This document shows, piece by piece, positions 19,290 through 64,000 of a stretch of DNA of 64,000 bases. Made by a program: the position numbers and the translations under genes. Origin of the DNA: Vicugna vicugna (Eukaryota); NCBI GenBank assembly GCA_013265495.1, contig MU057640.1, positions 1 through 64,000 on the forward strand. Direction: 5' to 3'. The notes beneath the pieces are model-generated. The model had not been told where the DNA came from and did no database searches. It worked only from the letters and a program-made list of their open reading frames with translations. How positions within the stretch are numbered: the stretch's first letter is position 1; every line of letters begins with the position of its first letter.

Positions 19290-20012
19290 AAAATTAATTT
19301 ATATTTTTTTATTGAACTATAGTTGGTTTACAGTGTTTCAGGTGTACAGCAAAGTGATTTCAGTTATACATATATGTATATATCCCTTTTCAGATACTTT
19401 TCTATTATATGTAATTACAAGATACTGAATATAATTCCCTGTGCTATAAGTAGGTCCTTGTTGTTTATCTGTTTTATATATAGTTGTATATATCTGTTAA
19501 TCCCAATTCCAAATTTATCGCTCCTCTGCCCTTTCCCCTTTGATAACCGTAAGTTTGTTTTCTACGTCTGTGAGTCTTTCTGTTTTATAAATAAGTTCAT
19601 TTGTATCATTTTTTTAGATTCCACATGTAACCGATATGATGTTTGTCTTTCTCTGACTTCATTTAATGTGATAATCTCCAGGTCCATCCATGTTGCTGCA
19701 AATGGCATTATTTTGTTCTTTTTTATGGCTGAGTAATATTCCATTATAGGTATACCACATTTTCTTTATCCATTCATCTGCTGATGGACATTTAGGTTGC
19801 TTTCATGTCTTGGCTGTTGTAAATAGTGCTGCTATGAACATAGAGATGTATGTATCTTTTTGAATTAAAGTTTTCTCCAGATACATGCCCAGGAGTGGGA
19901 TTGCTGGATCACACAGTAACTATTTTTAGTTTTTTTAAGGAATCTCTGTGCTGTTTTCCATAGTGGCTGCACCAGTTTACTTTCCCACCAGCAGTATAGG
20001 AGAGTCCCCCTT
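19290..20012 (-). mobile_element. LINE-1 3' end (ORF2 C-terminus plus 3'UTR)
   Basis: Minus-strand ORF MEYYSAIKKNKIMPFAATWMDLEIITL; typical L1 3'UTR. Confidence 0.92.
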
Positions 20013-25254: not shown

Positions 25255-25628
25255 ATTTTTTATTTAGTTGAAGTATAGTTGATTTACAATACTGGGTTAG
25301 TTTCAGCTGTGTAGCAGAGTGATTCAGTTATATATATATTTTTTTCAGGTTATTTTCCATTGTAGGTTATTATAAGGTATTGAATAAAGTTCCCTGTATT
25401 ATGCACTAAACCTTGTTGCTTATTTTGTGTGTAGTAGTTTGTATCTGTTAATCCCATACTCCTAATTTATACCTGCCCCCCCTTCTTCTTTGGTAGCCAT
25501 AAGTTTGTTTACTGTGTCTATAGTCTGTTTCTGTTTTGTATACAGATTCATTTGTATTATTCTTTAGATTCCTCTTGTAAGTGGTATCATATATTTGTCT
25601 TTCTCTGACATACTTCACATGATAATTT
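25255..25628 (-). mobile_element. LINE-1 3' end inserted in an older L1-like element
   Basis: gaagtatagttgatttacaat...ctttggtagccataagtttgtt...ttagattcc. Confidence 0.85.
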
Positions 25629-27167
25629 CTTTCTTTTAGTGTGAGTCTGCTGGTGGTGAATATTCTGTTTTGGTCTGAAAGCACTTTTTATTTTGTCTTC
25701 ACTTTTGAAGGATATTTTCACTGGACATAGAATTCCAGGTTGGCTGTTATTTTCTTTCAGCATTTGAAGTATATCATCTCATCATCTTTTGACTCCATTG
25801 TTTTTGTTAGAGAGGTAATGTCCTTGGTTTTCAGTAAGGCTTCTAGGTTTTTTTCTTTGTGTTTAAGATGCTTGAGTTGCATAGGTAACTTGAATCTGTA
25901 GCTTGACAGGTTTTGTCAGGTGTAGAATATCTCTTATGATATTGCTTCTGCCCCACTGTTTTGCTCACTCCCTTCTGGGATTCTAGATACCTGTATGTTA
26001 GAGCTTTCTCTGCATCCCATATATCTCTCATATGCTTTTCAGTATTTTCCATCTTTTTTTTTTTCTTTTCTGTCCTTCATCTGGGTATTTTCTGTTGACC
26101 TCTTTTCTAGTTCATTTAGTGTCCTGTCTGCTGTTACAAGCATCTGTTTTATTATTAAGTTTACATTAGGTATTTTTTAGTTCTAGAATTTCAGTGTTAT
26201 TATTTTTCATTTGTTTTTATAGATTCCAGTTCTTTGGTGAAATTCTCATCTTGTCATCTGAACATATTAATCACAGTTATTTTACAGTCTGTGATAATGA
26301 TAGCATCTGGATCCCCCTTTTGTCTTTTTCTATTATCTGCTTTTTCTCTGGCTTTCAGTTATTTGGTCCTGTCTCCTAGCATTCCTGGTAATTTTAGAAA
26401 TTAATGTCAGACATTTTTAATATAGGTTCACTTGTGTTATTCTTTAGATTCCTCTTATAAGTGATATCATATATTTGTCTTTCTCTGTCTGATATACTTC
26501 ACTTGGTAATTTCTTTCAGTGTGTGAGAAATTGTAGAGGCTCTTGATGATGATATTTTTCTCTAGAGAGTATTTAATTTTCTTCTGGTGATAGTTAAAAG
26601 TAGGAGCAGAAGCAGATAACTTTGATTCAGTACAGGCTTGAGATGACTTGAGACTTTGTTTTATGCTTTTGGGGGGCTGATTTAAATCCAGTTTCCCCTT
26701 ACTCTATAAGAGTTCTGTGTTCAAAGATATCAGATAGAATCCTAGAGTGTTTGCCAGGGCCTCTCCTTTTTGGCAGGCCCTGGACTGTAATTTTTCTTTT
26801 CCTAGCATTGTGAGATTACCAAAAGTTCTACTTGCCTTTTTTTTGCTTTAAAGTAGGCACTTTGCTTGGTTTTTGGCCTTTTGCCCCTACACAGGTTAGG
26901 ATTCAGTAAATACCCTGAGGGCCAAAACAGTACACAATGTCCAGACTCACTTTAAACTGTGGTTGCCTTTTCTCTGGAAATTTAGTCCATCAAATCCTGC
27001 CAGTCTCGATAAGCCCTGAACTCCATCTCTGCAGCCCTGTGAGACCACCAAAAGCTCTAGTCTGCAGCTAGTTGCCTTAGAAGGAAAAAGTAGTGAAGAA
27101 TGTCAGGCTTAACTCAGCATTTCTTTTTTCGCTGGTATTTTGGCTTCTCATATCCTGGCAGCCTTCT

Positions 27168-39664: not shown

Positions 39665-39830
39665 ATTTTTGTTGTTGTTGTTTAATTTGGGGGGATGGAG
39701 GGGAGGTAATTAGGTCTACTTGCTTATTTATTTATTTATTTTTAGAGGAGGTACTGGGGACTGAACCCAGGACTTCATGCATGTTAATCATGCTCTCTAC
39801 CACTTGAGCTATACCCTTCCCCCCACCCCC
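39665..39830 (-). mobile_element. Vic-1-type SINE
   Basis: gaggtaattagg...gaggaggtactggggactgaacccagg...cacttgagctataccc; flanking repeat acttctgt. Confidence 0.85.
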
Positions 39831-42811: not shown

Positions 42812-42990
42812 CAGTGGTTCTTCACTTTTTGGTAGTTACAGAATCCTTTGAGATTTCAATGAAAGTTGAAGAATCTGACCTCAGAAAGTGTACAGACACA
42901 TGTGTATTCAGATTTGTACATAATCTTAGGGCATTGCTAGACCTGAAGACCAGGGTACATGATGCCCTGGTCAAGAATATGTGGTCTAAA
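42812..42990 (-). mobile_element. MER103C-like hAT MITE
   Basis: cagtggttcttcactttttgg...cctttgaga...atgaaag...tttgtacataat. Confidence 0.6.
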
Positions 42991-43364
42991 TGGTGATCAG
43001 GGCTGAGGAGTATGTGGCTAGAGAGAGCTTTCACATTCAAACTGTGACAGTGTTCTCTTCTCAAATACTAATCTTCAGGGCAGTCCAGACTCAGTTTGTT
43101 GTTATTGTTTAAATCTTTGGTCTGACAGCTGATAAAATAATTTTTAGCTTTAGCTATTAAAATTTTTTCTTTGAAAGTGCCATAGATGGCAGGGTTTTCT
43201 GAAATAAGGCAATACGATATTCAGGATACCCTAACATGAAGCCTAGTAATAAAGAAAGTTGAAGTGAAATATAAACAAATTTCAAATTTACTGACACCTA
43301 GGATTATACAGGAGCTGAATGAATATTTCCTTTGAGAAAGTAGGTTTGAAAAAACAAGCAAACC

Positions 43365-44488
43365 AGAGAAGCAAGATGGCGGAGTAGAAGGACGCTCATA
43401 GCTCACCCTCTCCCACAAATACACCAAAACTCACATCTATGGACCCACTCAGCCAACCAGAGCACCTGCAGAAATCTGACAGAACACCACCCCCTTTGAA
43501 AGACAAAGATGCCAAAAATCTGGTAGGAGAAAAGGAAAAAAGAAAGAAGAAAAAGCAAAACAGTGTGGGATTGGTCCCGCGGGGAGGGAGAAGCAAACGA
43601 GGACTGGCGCTCATTCACTGGGTTTCCCCCCTCCAACGGAGAGGCCAGCGGGACAGAGGGCGAGCCTCCAAGGCTCAGATCTGCCCCGAGCACCCCTTGA
43701 CCGACAGAACTAAATTAAACGGGCACAAAGGGACCCCACAACACCCAGCCCGAGACACGAGCCGGCATCTGGGGGCTGGGACAGGCTGCCCAAGCCGGGC
43801 GGAGGACTGAGGCAGCTGCACTGAGGCAGCCCCGGGGGACTGCAGGGTGCTGCGCACCGTGGCTGGGAGGGGATATGGAGCAGAACAACCTCAGTCCCCC
43901 ATAAATTGTGAAAAAAGCAAAGCAACATGGCTGGTGTGCCCTGGGGGGAGGGGCACCATAGCCTTTGTCTCCTTAGACCCCGTGCCGCCATTACTGGTGC
44001 TTCTTGCGAGAAGAGAGGCAGGCCCCAGCCACAGCTGCCATCTCCTGCTATGCTCAGCGCCCAGGCGAGGGCAGGACCAAGACCTGAATCTGCACCCAGA
44101 GGCTCTGCAACCTCGTAGGCAGGACTGAGACTTGTTTACAGCCCAAGGCAGATAGGAGCTTTCTGCCCTGGCACCTCAGAGAACTCACGCAGCCAAGACA
44201 AACAAGGAGCTGAGATTTGGCACGGAGCAGGGGTGGAGCTGTTACGCGGTCTTCCCCGAGCCCGCCTACAGCGTGCCAACCCAAGGTGGAGTGGGCAGCT
44301 GCGCAGAGCAGCGGAGCAACCCGCGCTGGGAGAGGGCGGGTGGCCACCTGCCTTCCTGGCAGGAACACAGTACCTGACTGCCATGCTGGGAGGGGGCAAG
44401 ATCCACCCACCTGCCTCGCCCGAGTGTAGAATCTGACTGCGACATCGGGAGGGGGAGTGACCCTCCCGCCCACCAGTGCCAGAGAGAT
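43365..44488 (+). promoter_or_regulatory. L1 5'UTR internal promoter (CpG-rich)
   Basis: The main GC/CpG-rich stretch in the window; YY1-type site CAAGATGGCGG at about 43372. Activity not shown. Confidence 0.7.
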
Positions 44489-45391
44489 ATGAGCAATATG
44501 AAGAAGCAGAGGAACCACTCCCAATTAGAAGAGCAAGAGAAATCCCCTGAAAGAATGATCAAGGAAATAGATGTCAATAGCCTACTAGATCAAGATTTCA
44601 AAACAGGAGTGACCAAAGTACTGAAGAAACTAAAAGAAATAGTGTTTAGAGATATAAAATATGTCAAAAATGAAATAGAAGCTATAAAGAAGAACCAAGT
44701 AGAATTAGTAATCTCATTTGCTGAGATGAGAGCTGACCTAAAGGCTGTACAAAGCAGGCTAGACAATGTAGAGGAACAAATAAGTGACTTAGAAGATAGG
44801 ACAACAGAAAGCACCCAAGCAGAACAGCTGAGAGAAAAACAAATAAAAAACAAGAAAAACAATATAAGGGACCTATGGGATAATATAAAGCGTGCCAATC
44901 TTCTCATAATAGGGGTTCCAGAAGGGGAAGAAAGAACAATGGGGATTGAAAAGGTATTTGAAGAAATCATGACTGAAAACTTCCCAAACTTAAAGAAGGA
45001 AGCAGATATTGAAGTACAAGAGACTCAGAGGGTCCCAAAGAGGAAGAACCCAAACGGACCCACACCAAGACATATCATAATCAAGATGGCCAGAGTCAAG
45101 GATAAAGAAATGATCCTAAAGGCAGCAAGAGAAAAACAGAAAGTGAGTTACAAGGGAACCCCCATAAGGCTCTCAGCTGATTTCTCTACACAAACACTAC
45201 AGGCCAGGAGGGAGTGGCGAGATACATTCAAAGTCCTGAATGAAAAAAAGCTGCAGCCTAGGATACTCTATCCAGCAAGGCTGTCCTTTAGAATAGAAGG
45301 AGAGATAAAGAACTTCACAGACAAGCAAAAACTATAAGAGTTTAGCAACACTAAACCCATGCTAAAAGAAATATTGACAGGTCTGCTCTAA
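44489..45391 (+). pseudogene. LINE-1 ORF1p (coiled coil, RRM, CTD) with a late premature stop
   Basis: 282-aa ORF with L1 ORF1 motifs (NLLIIGVPEGEE, ENFPNL, TPRHIIIK, IRLSADFS, ARREW, YPARLSF). TAA at 45335-45337; the frame continues EFSNTKPMLKEILTGLL to a TAA at 45389-45391. Confidence 0.93.
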
Positions 45392-46234
45392 ATAGAAAAG
45401 AAGCAGTATGCTACAGAAATGAGAAACTCATAACTGGAAAGGTGATAACTACCATGAATTACAAATAGAATAAACACAAAATTGTAAAATAAGACATCTA
45501 AATCATTAAGCGTGGGAGAGGGGAGCAAGGAAATCCACTGTGAAAAACAGTATGGAGATTCCTCAAAAGACTAGGAATAGACTTACCATAAGACCCAGGA
45601 ATCCTGCTCCTGGGCATATATCCAGAAGGAACCCTACTTCAAAATGACACCTGCACCTTAGTGTTCATGGCAGCACTATTTACAATAGCCAAGACATGGA
45701 AACAGCCTAAATGTCCATCAACAGATGACTGGATAAAGAAGATGTGGTATATTTATACAATGGAATGCTATTCAGCCACAAACACTGACAACATAACGCC
45801 ATTTGCAGCAACATGGATGTTCCTGGAGAATGTCATTCTAAGTGAAGTAAGCCAGAAAGAGAAAGAAAAATACCTTATGAGATCACTCATATGTGAAATC
45901 TAAAATAAATAAATAAATAAAAGAACGTAAATACAAGACAGAAACAGTTTCATAGACAAAGAATACAAATTTGTGGTTGCCAAAGGGGCAGGGGGTGGGA
46001 AGGGACAGACTGGGATTTTAAAATGTAGAATAGATAAACAAGATTATACTGTATAGCACAGGGAAATATATACAAGATCTTGTGGTAGCTCACAGCAAAA
46101 AAAAAAAATGTGACAATGAATATATGTATGTTCATGTATAACTGAAAAATTGTGCTCTACACTGGAATTTGACACAACATTGTAAAATGACTATTACTCA
46201 ATAAAAAATGTTAAAAAAAACCCACAAGCAAACC

Positions 46235-46411
46235 TTTATACTGTATAGCACAGTGAAATAAATACAAGATCTTGTAGTGGCTCATGGTGAAAAAGGATAT
46301 GAAAATTAACATATGTATATTCATGTATGACTGAAAAATTGTGCTGTATACCAGAAATTGACACAACATTGTGAACTGATTATAACTCAATAAAAATAAA
46401 CTGAAGGGAAA
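46235..46411 (+). mobile_element. Second, more diverged short LINE-1 3' end
   Basis: tttatactgtatagcacag...actcaataaaaataaa, followed by a third copy of aagcaaacc. Confidence 0.85.
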
Positions 46412-48549
46412 AAAAAAGCAAACCAACCCATTGTTCTCTCTACTTTTCCATGAATCTGTTTGTTAAATAACTTTCTCACAAAACCAACCATGAACTTTTA
46501 AAATGAATTTTACTAGTCCTGTAAATTAAGTACCGGACATATTTATTTCACTGTGGGTGATAAAGCTGTACTTTGTTACCGTTCATTTGGCTCAGTGCCT
46601 AAGTGGAACACTGAGCTCGTGATACAACTTAATAAGTTATAAATTGTTTCCTTTTAGGCAAATTATGCCAGTTAGACCAATATTTAATGAAATCCAGAAT
46701 TCTTAGGATTCATTGGTTGAGTAAGGGATTGACTAGAAGACCTACCCCTAAGTCCTTTGGCCATGCTGAAGTCTGGGATTCCTTACATTTTTCACTTACT
46801 TAACTTATTGATCAAATGAAAAGTTTTTTTCTTCACTCTAAATCTTGAAAGCAAGTTCCACATTTTAAGAAAAGTAGAAATCAAAGAAAAATTAAAAAAT
46901 GAAATACTTTGTGGTGTAATATTCTATTGTAATGATGATTTAATATATGGCATTTTTAGCTTCGGTTTTTAGTGACTGAACAAATCATTATCATCAACAT
47001 CATCATCATCATTATTGTTTTGGCAGATGGACAGTCAGTGCACTTTTTTTTTTTTTTCTTTTGAGTTTCCCTGTAGAATACTGGAATAGAAGTGTGGTGA
47101 AGACTACAGTGAAATTGTATATGCTCACATTTAACCATGTTTGTTCAGAGAATACTAAAACAGAAGTGAGAGTTAAAGAACAATTACATTGAAATTTAGA
47201 TTCTCTCTGCTGTTCTAGTCCATGAGTTTCTGCTGTACAGTGATTTCATGCCTCCCATAGTGTGAGGATGCTATGTGGTGCTAGTGCTAGGTAGATGTTT
47301 TCCTCACAGCATAGCTCCTAAACATAAGCAAGCTACTTCAAATGTGTTCATTTGAAAACACCAGACTGTTCCATATTAGAAACAAAATCCTTGGCTGTGT
47401 TGGATTTATTGCAAGATAGCGTAGTACTGTACTTTGTGGATGATTTGAAGTATTCCCAATATTATTTTGAATTTATGTGATTTTTTGCTTTTAGTCTTGC
47501 TATCTTTGGAACTTAGCCCTGTGAGACTAGAGCCTACTGAAAAAATTATTAAGTTTAGCTAATCTAGGGGAATTTGTGAGTTTACTATTTTTTTTCAGAT
47601 ATTCAGAATGGTACCCATGGTTTTATATTTTAGTTTATGTATTCTTACATTTGAAATGAACTAATACTGTTGTAACAGAGTAATTTTACCATTTTCCCTA
47701 GCTTTGATTTTTTTTTTTTCTCCTTTAGTAAAGGGAAACAATCTTAAGTATCAGGGTCAAGTTTTCCTGAGTGTGTCTTATCTATTTCTTATGTATAGCA
47801 AGTATGTGCTATAGTGTTTGGGGTGTTTTTTTTTCCTCATAGTGAGTTTCTGAAGCTCCTGTCTTGTCCAGTCTTCCTTAAAACTTATATACAAGAGGAG
47901 CCTGAAGTTAGAGGTGTAATTGTGACAAAAGAACAAAGAAAAGCAAATAAACATGATTTAGAACCAAAAACTCTAGAAAGAAAAGTCCCCTTTTCTCTAA
48001 GAGTTGTAGCTCTCTAGTGGCCCTACAAAAGCCCTTAGTTCATTTTAGATTTGGCTGGACAAACTATATTTCAGTAACTTTATTTTTTTATTTTTTTTGG
48101 TAAAAGTGAGACTTATAGCTAAATGTGACTTGTTTCCCTTATGCTTTGTTAGGGGTCTCATAATTATATGTGTGTATATGTTTATATTTCTATACTCCTC
48201 ATCTTTGTCCTCAGTTACAGAAAGAATTTTAGGTGTCTTGCTTTCCACCTAATTAAAATTATAAAATACTTGATGTATACAAAAGAATATATATAATATA
48301 TAGGTTATAGAGCATAAGGAAATGAAAACTTACATATCTTCTACTTAGCTTAAGAATTAGAGCATTACCAAAACTTTTGAAGTCCTCATGTGAACCATTC
48401 CTGATTATGTCCTCCTTTCTTTTCCCTCAGAAGTAATACTGCCCTCAATTATGTTTATCATTCTCTTGTTTTTCTTTTCAGTTTTGCTAATTACATGCAT
48501 ATTTCTAAATGTTATGTTTAGTTTTGCATATTTTTAGGGGTAATATTGG

Positions 48550-51755: not shown

Positions 51756-52854
51756 ACTTTAATTAAAATATTTGAGGTCTTTTATATGTAATTTAAAATT
51801 CATTTAAACAAATGTACTAGGTGTTAAGACATAAACTTTGTTGAAATGTCAACTTTTTCCTTCATTTTAAAATAGGAAGTATTGTTCATAACAATAGCAT
51901 AAACTTATTTCTCTGAGTTATTGGACCTCAATTATAAATAAAAGCATGTTGCTCTGAAAGGGGTAGAAAGATTTTCAAATTTTTTCCTGTTCTTTACAGT
52001 CAGATCTATTACATGATAAAATTATTATAAAATCAGCTTCTTTATCATACCATGGCATAGTATTTTAGTTCAGAGAGTAGGAAAGTAAAATATTACAAAT
52101 AGAAAATATAGGGTGAAGACAGAGAAAAGTGAGAAAGCTGCAGCATATTTGAAAGGCCTTATCATCATAGAATTATGCAAAGATGTGTTAGGAGACGAGG
52201 CTGGGAAAAGGTTGGGTTCCAGTTCTAGAGGCTCCTGAATGCCAGTCTCAGAAATTAAATTTTGGGAACTTCAACAGTTTTTGAACACATTCAAGGATGA
52301 ATTTTAGGAATATTAATCTGACATCACTATGTTGGAAGGTCAGAGGAAAGAGGGCTTGGAGTCTAAGGGTTGTTGCAGACACTCATGGACGAAGTGGTTT
52401 TCCTATCAGGGCAGTTAGGAATAGGAGAGAATGGCAAAGTGTCAGAGATATTGGTGCCTATTCGCATCAATAGCACCAGTGGATGGACTTGGTATGGAAG
52501 AATTGTGAAAAAATGTCAGAGATGAGCCTTAAACTTTGGTATTGTCACTTTAAAGCATTGATGGATGTAAAGATGTTATGTAGAAATAGGAAAATCAGGA
52601 AGAAGAACTTATTTTAAGATAAATTTGAATTAGAGTTCAAAGTACAAGACTAGACTTGACAAAGAAGTCAGGACTAGATATGAACTCTCTCTGGGAGATA
52701 GAAAAGAATTTATGCTTATAATTAATTGAGTTTTAACCTGTTTTTCTTTTTTAAATCTCTGTTCAGTATATAATGTGAGAATTCAAAGAAGGAAAGATAC
52801 AGTTTGCTGTGAACTTCAAATTTACATATTGATGGGGCATTTTTAGTTTGCTAG

Positions 52855-54835
52855 TAAGGTGACTTAACGTTGATTGATTTTCAAATGTTAACTAAACGCT
52901 ATGTTTATTAGAAAAACTCCATGTGGTCATGATACATTTTTTATGTATCATTTGGTTTGATTTACTGAAATGTTGTTGAGAATTTCTGAATGTATGTTCA
53001 TGAGAGATACTGGTCTGTCTATTTAAAAAGCTGACTTTTAAAATAATGTCTTTGTCTGGTTTTGGTCTCAGGATAATCTTAACCTGATAGAATGATTTGA
53101 GAAATACTCCTTTGTCAATTGTTTTGGAAGAGTTTGTGTAGAATTGGTATAATTTCTTCCTTAAATATTTGGTAGAATTCACCAGTGAATCCATTTAGCC
53201 CAGGAGTTGTATTTGTGAAAAGATTTTAAAATATAAATTCAATTTCTATTGAGGTTATCTATTTCTTTTTCTTTTTCTTTGTTTCTGGGGAAGCTGTTTG
53301 TGCAGTTTATTATTGAGGTTATCTGTTACTTTGTCTTTTTCTTTTTTTTTCTGGGGAAGCTGTTTGTGCAGTTTATTTTATTTTTATTGAAGTCAGTTTA
53401 CAATGTTATGTCAATTTCTGGCGTACAGTACAATACTTGAGTCACACAGGAACATACATATATTCATTTTCATACTCTTTTTAACCATAAGCTACTACAA
53501 GCTATTGAACATAGTTCCCTGTGCTATACAGTATAAACTTATTGTTTATTTATTTTATATATGGTATTTAGTATCTGCAGATCTTGAACTCCCAATTTAT
53601 CCCTTTATTTCTTTTTGAGTAAGCTGTGAAAGTTTGAAACTTGCAAGGAATTTTTCCATTTTATTTGAGTTGTTGAATTTATTGCTTAAACTTGTTCATA
53701 ATATTCCCTTATTATTCTTCTTAATATCTGTAAAATCTATAGTGTTGACACCTCTCTCATTCTTGATACTGGTAATTTGTATTTTTTTTTCCCCCTGAAT
53801 AATCCGGCTACAAGTTTATCAGTTTTTTAAAAATCTTCTGAAAAAACTAGCATTTGGCTTCCTTTTCTCTATTTTTCTATTTTCTTACTTCATTGCTTTC
53901 TGCTCTAATCCCTACTGTTTCCTTTTTTTTCTGCTTAATTTGCATGTCTTTGTCCCTTTAGTTTATATAGGTAGAAGCTAAAGTCACTGTTTTAAGTAAG
54001 ATCTTTCTTTTTTCTAATATAGACGTATAGTGTAGGGTTTCTCAATAGTGGCACTATTGATATTTTAAGCTGGATAATTCTTTGTTGTCAGGGGCTGTCC
54101 TGGGCATTATAGAATGTTTAGCAGTATTCCTAGCCACTATTTATAAGATGCCAGTAGCATCTCACTAGTGACAAGATTGTTGTCCCCTAATGCAAGACTG
54201 TTACCTGGTTGAGAACCCCTGATTTAGTGCTATGAATTTCTGAGTACTCCTTTTGTGGCATCCCACAAATTTTGATATATTATGTTTTCATTCAGTTCAA
54301 AATACTGTCTATATTCCTTTTTGATTTTACTTTGACCCATGGGCTAATCTGAAATGTATTTTTTAGTTTCCAAATATTTGGCAATTTAATTCCATTGTGA
54401 TCAGAGATCATAGAATGAGCATACTTTGTATGGCTTGAAGCTTTTTAAATTTGAGACTTGTTTTATGGCCCAGAGTATGGTCTATATTGGTAAATGTTCC
54501 ACATGCATTTAAAGAAGGTGTATTCTGTTGTCATGGGGTAGAGTGCTCTATAAATGTCAATCAGGTCATGTTGGCCAATAATGTTTTTCATTCAGGTCTT
54601 GCTGTTTATACTCTTGATGATTTTATTCCTACTTATTCCATTAACTATTGAAAAGTTAACTATTGAAAACTATTGAAAAGGAATATATAGCCACTCCAGC
54701 TTTCTTTTGAATTATATTAATATGGTATATTTTTTTTCTATCCTTTTGCTCTGAATCTATTTGTGTCTTTATGTTTTAAGTGGGTTTATTGTAGGCAGCA
54801 TATAGTTGGGTCTTGCTTTTTTATCCAGTTCGATG
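52855..54835 (-). mobile_element. Old LINE-1 ORF2 remnant with nested younger L1 3' end (about 53377-53605) and MER20 (about 54033-54221)
   Basis: Minus ORF 52892-53194 with RT-region motif (SFYQVKIILRPKPDKDI); nested elements recognised by their end motifs. Confidence 0.8.
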
Positions 54836-61500: not shown

Positions 61501-62674
61501 TGATCATTGATATAGGAAACACTGAAAGAATATTCTTATTCTCTGCATGTGGTTACAGAAGAATGATTTTGGTGCATTATTAAGTGATAACGACAAGGTA
61601 CAGAACAAACAGTTTATATAGAAAGATTCTGTTTGTAGTTAAAAAGAAAAATCATATATATTCGTATACATGTAAGAGATAATCTGTAAGAAGATGACAC
61701 AGGTAACTCAACTACAGAATGGGAATGAAAGATTAGGAATCTTTTACTTTTCTATGTATATCTTTTGGAACTAGTGACATTTCTTCTCATGAGCATATAT
61801 CATATTTGTAATAAGCATATATATTTTTAAAATTTTTCATTCACAGGATTCTAAGAGGCTGGTATACAGTGTTGAAATAATTGTAGTAGAGTTAATTGAA
61901 GCACTCTATTGGCTATGAAATACATAGCTGTAAAGTATTTTGTATGAGATAAGTAAGGTTCAAAATCTTTCAGTGTAGTTCTTGTTTGTCATAAGAAACA
62001 GCTGATTGGGTTGTGCTTTAAAGATAAACACATAAGATACAAGGTTATACCTTACGTGGGTAGGGAAGCTTATTTAGGGCATTTTTGTTTGGTCTTTTCC
62101 AAATGGCCTTTGAAATCCTTTCTATAAGACATTCATCCTGTCTGCTATGTTGTGCCCTCCCCTTACCTGCCTTCCTTCCCTGACCCATCCTATCCCACCC
62201 GATCCCATAAATTTATGTACAGGTGACCCAGGGTAGAAAAGGAGAATCAGAACCTGAAAATTTCCATAGCTTAGAAATAGATGCATTTCCTTAGTCAAAG
62301 TTAGCTGGCAAATGATGTCTTATCTGGCCTTGTCTTAGAGACCACTAAATTCTGAACTAGTCATAAATTGGTATAAAAAGTTTCCCATGTAGGCAACTAG
62401 TAGGGTAGCAGGCATGCTCATGGAAGGAGAACATGTTTGGGGGTAGAGAAGATGAGTTTCTTTTGAGGTACATACCAGACATGCACATGCAGATCCTCAC
62501 TGACTGCAAAACCATCCTGAACTTTGATTTTGAAGTTACAAATAAATTTTAGTGAGTAGGTGAGTTTGCAAATATGGAATCCTCGAATAATGAGGGTTGG
62601 CTATATATAAATGATTGTTGAAGTCACGAGTAAGTGACATTGCCTAGGGGAAGTGAGAATAGAAGAAGGCCTGG

Positions 62675-63544
62675 CCATCATTCAAAAATCCACAAATGAC
62701 AAATGCTGTAGAGGCTGTGGAGAAAAGGGAACCCTCCTACACTGTTGGTGGGAATGCAGTTTGGTCCAGCCACTGTGGAAAACAGTATGGAGATTCCTCA
62801 AAAGACTAGGAATAGACTTACCATATAGCCCAGGAATCCCACTCCTGGGCTTGTATCCAAAAGGAATCCTACTTCAGGATGACACCTGCACCCCAATGTT
62901 CATAGCAATGTTCATAGCAGCATTATTTACAATAGCCAAGACATGGAAACAGCCTAAGTGTCCATCAACAGATGATTGGATAAAGAAAAAGTGGTATATT
63001 TATACAATGGAATACTACTGAGCCATAAAAACCGACAGTATAATGCCATTTGCAGCAACATGGATGCTCCTGGAGAATTTCATTCTAAGTGAAGTAAGCC
63101 AGAAAGAGAAAGAAAAATACCATATGAGGTGCCTCATATGTGGAATCTAAAAAAAAAAAACAAACAAACAAAGCATAAATACAAAACAGAAATAGACTCA
63201 CAGACATAGAATACAAACTTGTGGTTGTCAAGGGGGCGGGGGGTGGGAAGGGACAGACTGGGATTTCAAAATGTAGAATAGATAAACAAGATTATACTGT
63301 ACAGCACAGGGAAATATATACAAGATCTTATGGTAGCCCACAGAGAGAAAAAAATGTGACAATGAATATATATATGTTCATGTACAAATGAAAAATTGTG
63401 CTCGACACTGGAATTTGACACAACATTGTAAAATGATTATAAATCAGTAAAAAATGTTAAAAAAAAAAAACTTTCCATAGGTCAGACAAATGGCCTCCAT
63501 CAGGCTGAAAAATAAAATCAAGACTTGTACAGTAAAAAAAAAAA
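62675..63544 (+). mobile_element. Young 5'-truncated LINE-1 with 3' transduction, inserted in an L2
   Basis: ORF2 C-terminal Cys-rich motif ([18 protein letters not shown]); two A tails; perfect 17-bp TSD aatagaagaaggcctgg (62658-62674; 63545-63561). Confidence 0.95.
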
Positions 63545-64000
63545 AATAGAAGAAGGCCTGGGACAAACCTAGAAGCAACAGGCAGTAAAATAGATATCTT
63601 CAAAGGAAAATAAGAATGAAGCCAGAGAGAAGGGAAGCCAGGAGAATGTGGTCTCAGAAGCCAAGGTTTCAAGAAAGGAGAAAGTGGTCAGATGCTATAA
63701 AGAGATCAAGTAAGAAATCCAACTTCATTAGATTAAATATTTGAAAATCTTGGTGACTTACAGTGGAGTCATGAGGATGTAGTCTAGATTTAGGAGTGAA
63801 TGGATACAAAATAAGGAGAGAGCAAGTCTAGAGATTACCAATTCAAGAAGTTTGTCAGACAAGTTTGTGTGAGGTTGGGGAGGGGTGGGAGGGGGAAGCG
63901 TTTCAAGAGGTACAAGGAAACTTCTGGTGGTAATGGCTGTCTGTTACACTGATGGTGATGATGGTTTCTCTGGTTAGGGTACTTAGCAAATTGTATACTT

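Follow-up and report, generated by a model that had tools for sequence, protein, structure and literature searches.

ORF1-only derivatives of LINE-1 (L1) are known from mammals as HAL1 (half-L1) elements (Smit 1999; Bao and Jurka 2010). In the available text of the sources on them, they were made by internal deletion and had several mammalian origins (PMC5753468, PMC5786205, PMC4161310, PMC13756887, PMC4859970). Spliced L1 copies, designated SpIREs (Larson et al. 2018, PMC5860796), arise in the available portion of that report by splicing within the 5'UTR or from the 5'UTR into ORF1, and they are called dead ends there; an excerpt from another source describes one SpIRE that was revived by a host promoter (PMC13174262). 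The accessible part of PMC2912911 names, as a category, L1 insertions with internal deletions and products of template switching. As for camelids, the main text of a survey of transposable elements in Camelus (PMC8605555) contains 0 occurrences of HAL1 or ORF1, camelids are unnamed in the main text of PMC5203782, and Repbase contains L1-2_Vpa (PMC6726744). No published description of the camelid element reported here was found in the literature, and a named family may exist in Repbase, Dfam or the supplements of PMC8605555, which were outside the search.

The element lies in a 64-kb window, i.e., the whole stretch of Vicugna vicugna DNA that was analyzed. It is one camelid L1 of 2.86 kb on the plus strand, which spans 43365-46220 between exact 11-bp target site duplications (TSDs) at 43354-43364 and 46224-46234, and the 5' TSD belongs to a 17-bp target at 43348-43364. 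In a chance check with 2000 40-mers drawn at random from the window, 4 matched the upstream 30 nt equally well. The 5'UTR (43365-44488, 1,124 nt) is partly decayed, with a GC content of 59.7% and a CpG observed/expected ratio of 0.43, and its first 145 nt showed a 65% match to the L1 of locus L004, in the 5' part of the latter. The following ORF1 (44489-45391) has 300 codons without a frameshift, its natural stop at 45389-45391, and a single premature stop at 45335-45337 (codon 283 of 300). The Transposase_22 and Tnp_22_dsRBD domains were detected in ORF1 above the Pfam cut-off (PF02994, 7.8e-26; PF17490, 2.2e-18), and the comparison with the human ORF1p structures in the PDB gave 2.7e-57. ORF1 is followed by the initial 143 nt of the inter-ORF spacer (45392-45534), bounded by the ORF1 stop and the junction, and then directly by an ORF2 remnant (45535-45903), which consists of the last 122 codons, in frame, with two premature stops. 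The 3'UTR (45904-46220) carries AATAAA at 46200 and a tail of eight A residues at 46213-46220.

The first retained ORF2 codon corresponds to residue 1152 of human ORF2p, just beyond the Cys/His motif, the zinc knuckle. The absent segment contains the endonuclease, the reverse transcriptase (RT) and the zinc knuckle, and its length was estimated at approximately 3.7 kb (about 3,735 nt) of a parent of about 6.6 kb, using a pig-like spacer and the human numbering as yardsticks. No match was obtained inside the element by tblastn and blastn with ORF2 of the pig-like L1 locus L001. The element is a mammalian L1 by its ORF1 domains and by the hallmarks of target-primed reverse transcription (TPRT), namely the TSD, the polyadenylation signal and the A tail, and it lacks the endonuclease and RT of an autonomous L1. 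The copy would yield a truncated ORF1p at best, and it is without the capacity for self-mobilization. An earlier note on this DNA had described a TSD-flanked, ORF1-only L1 with an intact 3' end, in which about 140 nt of spacer ending at 45534 is followed by the ORF2 C-terminus; the 11-bp TSD, the AATAAA, the A tail and the measured spacer length bear out this description, to which the premature ORF1 stop is an addition.

The target of the insertion is present three times (43348-43364, 46224-46234 and 46408-46424), and all of the copies stop at the same base of the target. Downstream of the 3' TSD, in tandem to the element and on the same strand, there is a 5'-truncated L1 3' fragment of 173 nt (46235-46407), which is closed by the third target copy, a 17-mer with one mismatch, so that the two together occupy 46235-46424. 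The tail identity to the element is 78% for this fragment, as compared with 92% for an L1 copy at 62.7 kb in the window, and the tandem fragment is therefore probably older. We infer that the 2.86-kb element entered the 5' target copy of the older fragment. The boundaries of the element are independent of the history of the tandem fragment.

When the element was compared with the window by BLAST, both informative paralogue alignments began exactly at 45535. The paralogue at 62770 was 88.4% identical over 699 columns, and that at 19966, on the minus strand, was 69.9% identical. The former is part of a 5'-truncated copy of the same subfamily (62658-63561, plus strand, including its 17-bp TSD), which was used as the reference, and the identity with this copy was 90.5% for the ORF2 remnant and 89.8% for the 3'UTR. 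The closest named ORF2 matches of the 62.7-kb paralogue were those of Camelus dromedarius (88%) and C. bactrianus (87%), which supports the camelid origin.

Several other features were observed in the window and among related proteins. The 62.7-kb copy proper (62675-63470, between TSDs at 62658-62674 and 63545-63561) has a 12-nt in-frame tandem duplication in its ORF2 (62904-62915), and the non-L1 sequence that follows it (about 65 nt, 63471-63535), with an AATAAA and an A tail of its own, looks like a short 3' transduction. At 25255-26240 on the minus strand, a truncated L1 3' end abuts a very decayed ancient ORF1, and the arrangement mimics an element in which ORF1 is joined to an L1 tail; the older element there seems to resume below 25255, and a second short piece with the same type of tail is located at 26415-26517. 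Another truncated L1 3' end (53329-53603, minus strand) lies within an old ORF2 (52841-54827), and a ~45-nt repeated stretch comes after it. The head of a tRNA-like SINE, with an A-rich tail, was called by eye at 39730-39830 on the minus strand. Among the proteins, P0127 is a C. bactrianus GTF2F2 gene model, in which the last ~280 residues are L1 ORF2 of the subfamily of the element, possibly because of an exonized L1 or a gene-model error. In P0345, an RT-like segment precedes the ORF2 C-terminus, the two meet about two codons upstream of the rejoin point of the element, and this protein may represent another internally deleted L1 that ends near the rejoin point.

We tentatively prefer the explanation that the element is one dead L1 insertion whose middle was lost in a large deletion, without action of the spliceosome. 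Large deletions occur in cell-culture L1 insertions. The TSD, the AATAAA, the A tail and the full 5' end show that TPRT inserted a camelid L1 RNA, the length of which was about 6.6 kb, and the copy lacks approximately 3.7 kb between the spacer and a point just beyond the zinc knuckle of ORF2. Most likely, RT supplied in cis by the full-length RNA would have made a template jump into the spacer after the first ~690 nt and then continued as far as the 5' end, although a later DNA deletion at the locus would give the same picture. Since then, neutral decay has proceeded at a similar rate in both halves, according to the low-power comparisons given below. L1 proteins act mainly in cis, according to the available text of PMC5860796, and therefore, the template-jump route proceeds without a rare trans step. 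A single TSD pair encloses the 5' and 3' halves, which is a point for the reading of one insertion. On the other hand, the rejoin follows a CAG in both paralogues, which is expected at about 3% by chance, and the lack of microhomology on the 5' side (0 shared bases) counts against a template jump or a deletion. A single deleted copy is an ordinary-looking ORF1-only L1 fossil, and ORF2-less half elements are already known.

A rather unlikely alternative is that an L1 RNA was spliced from a donor in the spacer to a CAG in the ORF2 C-terminus, and that the resulting 2.9-kb RNA was inserted by the ORF2p of another L1, once or repeatedly. The earlier note had placed the rejoin directly after a CAG, and we indeed found CAG directly upstream of the rejoin point in two of the two window paralogues. 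In 2,903 nt of related ORF2, AG precedes 7.5% of the positions and YAG precedes 3.0%. The AG at the junction is more than chance in itself, although the finding was picked because of the AG, and the CAG before the rejoin is the one real point for splicing. The junction is clean, with a full 5' end and a TSD, which is consistent with a spliced RNA, and its left edge is unambiguous because the spacer end and the upstream ORF2 share 0 bases. However, the surroundings of the junction speak against this route. Consensus patterns of splice sites and branch points were used for the scoring. The pyrimidine fraction from -20 to -5 of the AG was 0.375 and 0.25 in the two paralogues, 66 of the 86 YAG sites in the related ORF2 had an equal or better acceptor context, and no branch-point motif was seen upstream of the candidate acceptor. 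In addition, the same-subfamily 62.7-kb copy has a competing CAG (62757-62759) located 10 nt upstream of the candidate acceptor CAG (62767-62769). The context of the candidate acceptor thus appears weak.

On the donor side, the best donor-like site in the kept spacer (45439-45447, plus strand) matches 7 of 9 consensus positions, and it remained unused, 93 nt upstream of the break. The last kept base of the spacer differs from the G that is usual at donor position -1. For comparison, 17 non-camelid L1 loci were obtained from an ORF1 scan of metagenomes, and the spacers of four of them were tested by shuffling. The last ~68 nt of the spacer aligned with those of two pig-like L1s, L001 and L002 (0 of 500 shuffles as good), and the spacers of L006 (169 of 500 shuffles as good) and L015 (409 of 500) gave no alignment beyond chance. 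GT was present at the break in 0 of the 2 alignable pig-like spacers in either alignment register, but this is weak evidence because the spacers are only ~70% alike. Both pig-like spacers have a 7/9 donor, which precedes the break by 2-5 nt according to the register chosen. Its proximity to the break, within 5 nt, is consistent with splicing, but it is off the break position, and its use would cut earlier than the observed break. No usable spacer homologue was found among the old L1s of the window, the ORF1 scans of genome contigs, viral contigs and metagenomes yielded no camelid L1 loci, and the plasmid collection gave no match. A 6-mer is shared between the spacer (45512-45517) and ORF2 (62748-62753), 17 and 16 nt before the break, respectively. 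It was found post hoc, and 337 of 20,000 shuffles shared as much; it counts in favor of the single deleted insertion, and it may hint at pairing between the spacer and ORF2 or have arisen by chance. From the available text of PMC5860796, human spliced L1 RNAs can retrotranspose, but the SpIRE classes described there keep ORF2, and the present element would need ORF2p in trans. Overall, the structural part of the spliced or family reading proposed earlier (TSD, ORF1 only, CAG) was retained, whereas the context of the splice signals leans against splicing.

We also consider it unlikely that the element belongs to a camelid ORF1-only, HAL1-like family, in which a deleted master kept the promoter, ORF1 and the tail, and produced many copies via the ORF2p of full L1s. 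The element has every part that such a family needs, but the reading frame of its ORF2 remnant is preserved, and decay has gone no further there than in ORF1 or in a dead copy. Bao and Jurka reportedly found in 2010 that the ORF1 of HAL1 is under selection while the remainder drifts. Here, private amino-acid changes were counted at 24 of 240 residues in ORF1 and 14 of 119 in the ORF2 remnant (Fisher p 0.59), and an ordinary truncated copy had 14 of 120. The ORF1 comparison set consisted of three proteins, which were taken as camelid by their identity of 72-84%, and P0024 was excluded as a near copy of P0121. Premature stops numbered 1 in 300 codons of ORF1 and 2 in 122 of the remnant (p 0.20). 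Between the remnant and the 62.7-kb copy, 23 non-synonymous and 8 synonymous codon differences were found, and there were 0 frameshifts in ORF1 and the remnant. The comparison of private changes and stops, the power of which is low, gave no signal of selection on ORF1. If a HAL1-like lineage had persisted for long, the remnant would be expected to show more decay than ORF1 and the dead copy. No such excess was seen, so a prolonged HAL1-like past is not indicated, and any family would have been short-lived. The pattern is compatible with a single insertion that differs by about 5% from its source and has decayed evenly, and a short burst of copies would escape this test. The available text of PMC5753468 and PMC5786205, in which HAL1s arose several times in mammals by internal deletion, is in favor of a family. 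Thus, the ORF1-only structure behind the HAL1-like proposal of the earlier note stood, while the decay rates were without the sign of a long-lived lineage of this type.

The number of copies bears on both of these alternatives. A second copy of the junction element was absent from the 64-kb window, which is a point against a family. ORF1 and the ORF2 end were found together in one protein in 0 of 121 and 0 of 268 cases, and no camelid model with a longer ORF1 protein was present among the 120 matches listed. From the 268 ORF2 C-terminal proteins, 262 were anchored; 192 of these run on into the upstream ORF2, 28 were too short, and the remaining 42 continue into other sequence with scattered joins. 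This survey is mute on the splicing of the junction, because the gene models look like unspliced gene calls. In a word search of sequencing runs with 42900-46600, 20 of 24 rows contained a part of the region, and the best share was 0.62; these shares carry no weight in any of the readings. Across all of the readings, it is possible, but in our judgment doubtful, that the junction exists in multiple copies.

The two alternatives could also be combined. Recurrent splicing that joined the spacer to the ORF2 C-terminus would have given an ORF1-only L1 RNA that kept the promoter, ORF1 and the tail, and its copies could have been transcribed and re-copied in trans, as the early birth of a HAL1-type family in camelids. 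We regard this as improbable. If the junction recurs at many loci on GT..AG, this could explain the start of ORF1-only families. The known spliced L1 copies are dead ends that have lost the promoter or ORF1. The present form, if true, keeps both, and splicing would then lead directly to a new HAL1-type family.

A nested origin, in which a 5'-truncated L1 inserted in the same direction into the spacer of a full-length L1 and recombination between the matching 3' ends then removed the middle, is very unlikely. Truncated L1 3' ends lie inside older L1s twice in the window (25255-25634 and 53329-53603), and the kept 3' part of 686 nt has a typical truncated length, like the 62.7-kb copy. However, no endonuclease-type target is present within 20 nt upstream of the break, the nearest TT/AA is ~27 nt away, and this origin requires two events, while the two halves are equally decayed. 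An assembly mis-join of two L1 pieces is hardly credible, since the window is free of N, the junction offers no shared sequence to an assembler and one TSD pair surrounds the whole, and the finding that the best-matching public DNA records contain only about 0.6 of the words sampled from 42900-46600, which such a mis-join would fit, is by itself no evidence.

The preferred single deleted insertion resembles the internally deleted L1s as known from the accessible text of PMC2912911, in that one TSD-flanked copy has kept its two ends and lost its middle. In the available part of a tumor study (10.1101/2024.08.27.596794), the deletions are short and tied to 5' inversions, whereas 3.7 kb are missing here and there is no inversion. 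With the SpIREs of the available text of PMC5860796, the element shares a TSD-flanked L1 structure with an internal gap ending at an AG. However, SpIREs lose the 5'UTR or the 5'UTR/ORF1 and keep ORF2, while the present element keeps the promoter region and ORF1 and loses ORF2. Membership in either SpIRE class set out there was rejected, because the gap extends from the spacer to the ORF2 C-terminus and not within the 5'UTR/ORF1. With HAL1, as presented in the accessible text of its sources, the element has in common ORF1 without a working ORF2, a kept L1 5' end and tail, and an internally shortened body. HAL1s in those sources are multi-copy families, whereas one copy was seen here. The present element also differs from HAL1 in that its remnant is in frame and 90.5% identical to a young autonomous subfamily, with no sign of selection on ORF1. 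The element works like HAL1 in its layout, and it is described here as structurally HAL1-like and not filed as HAL1.
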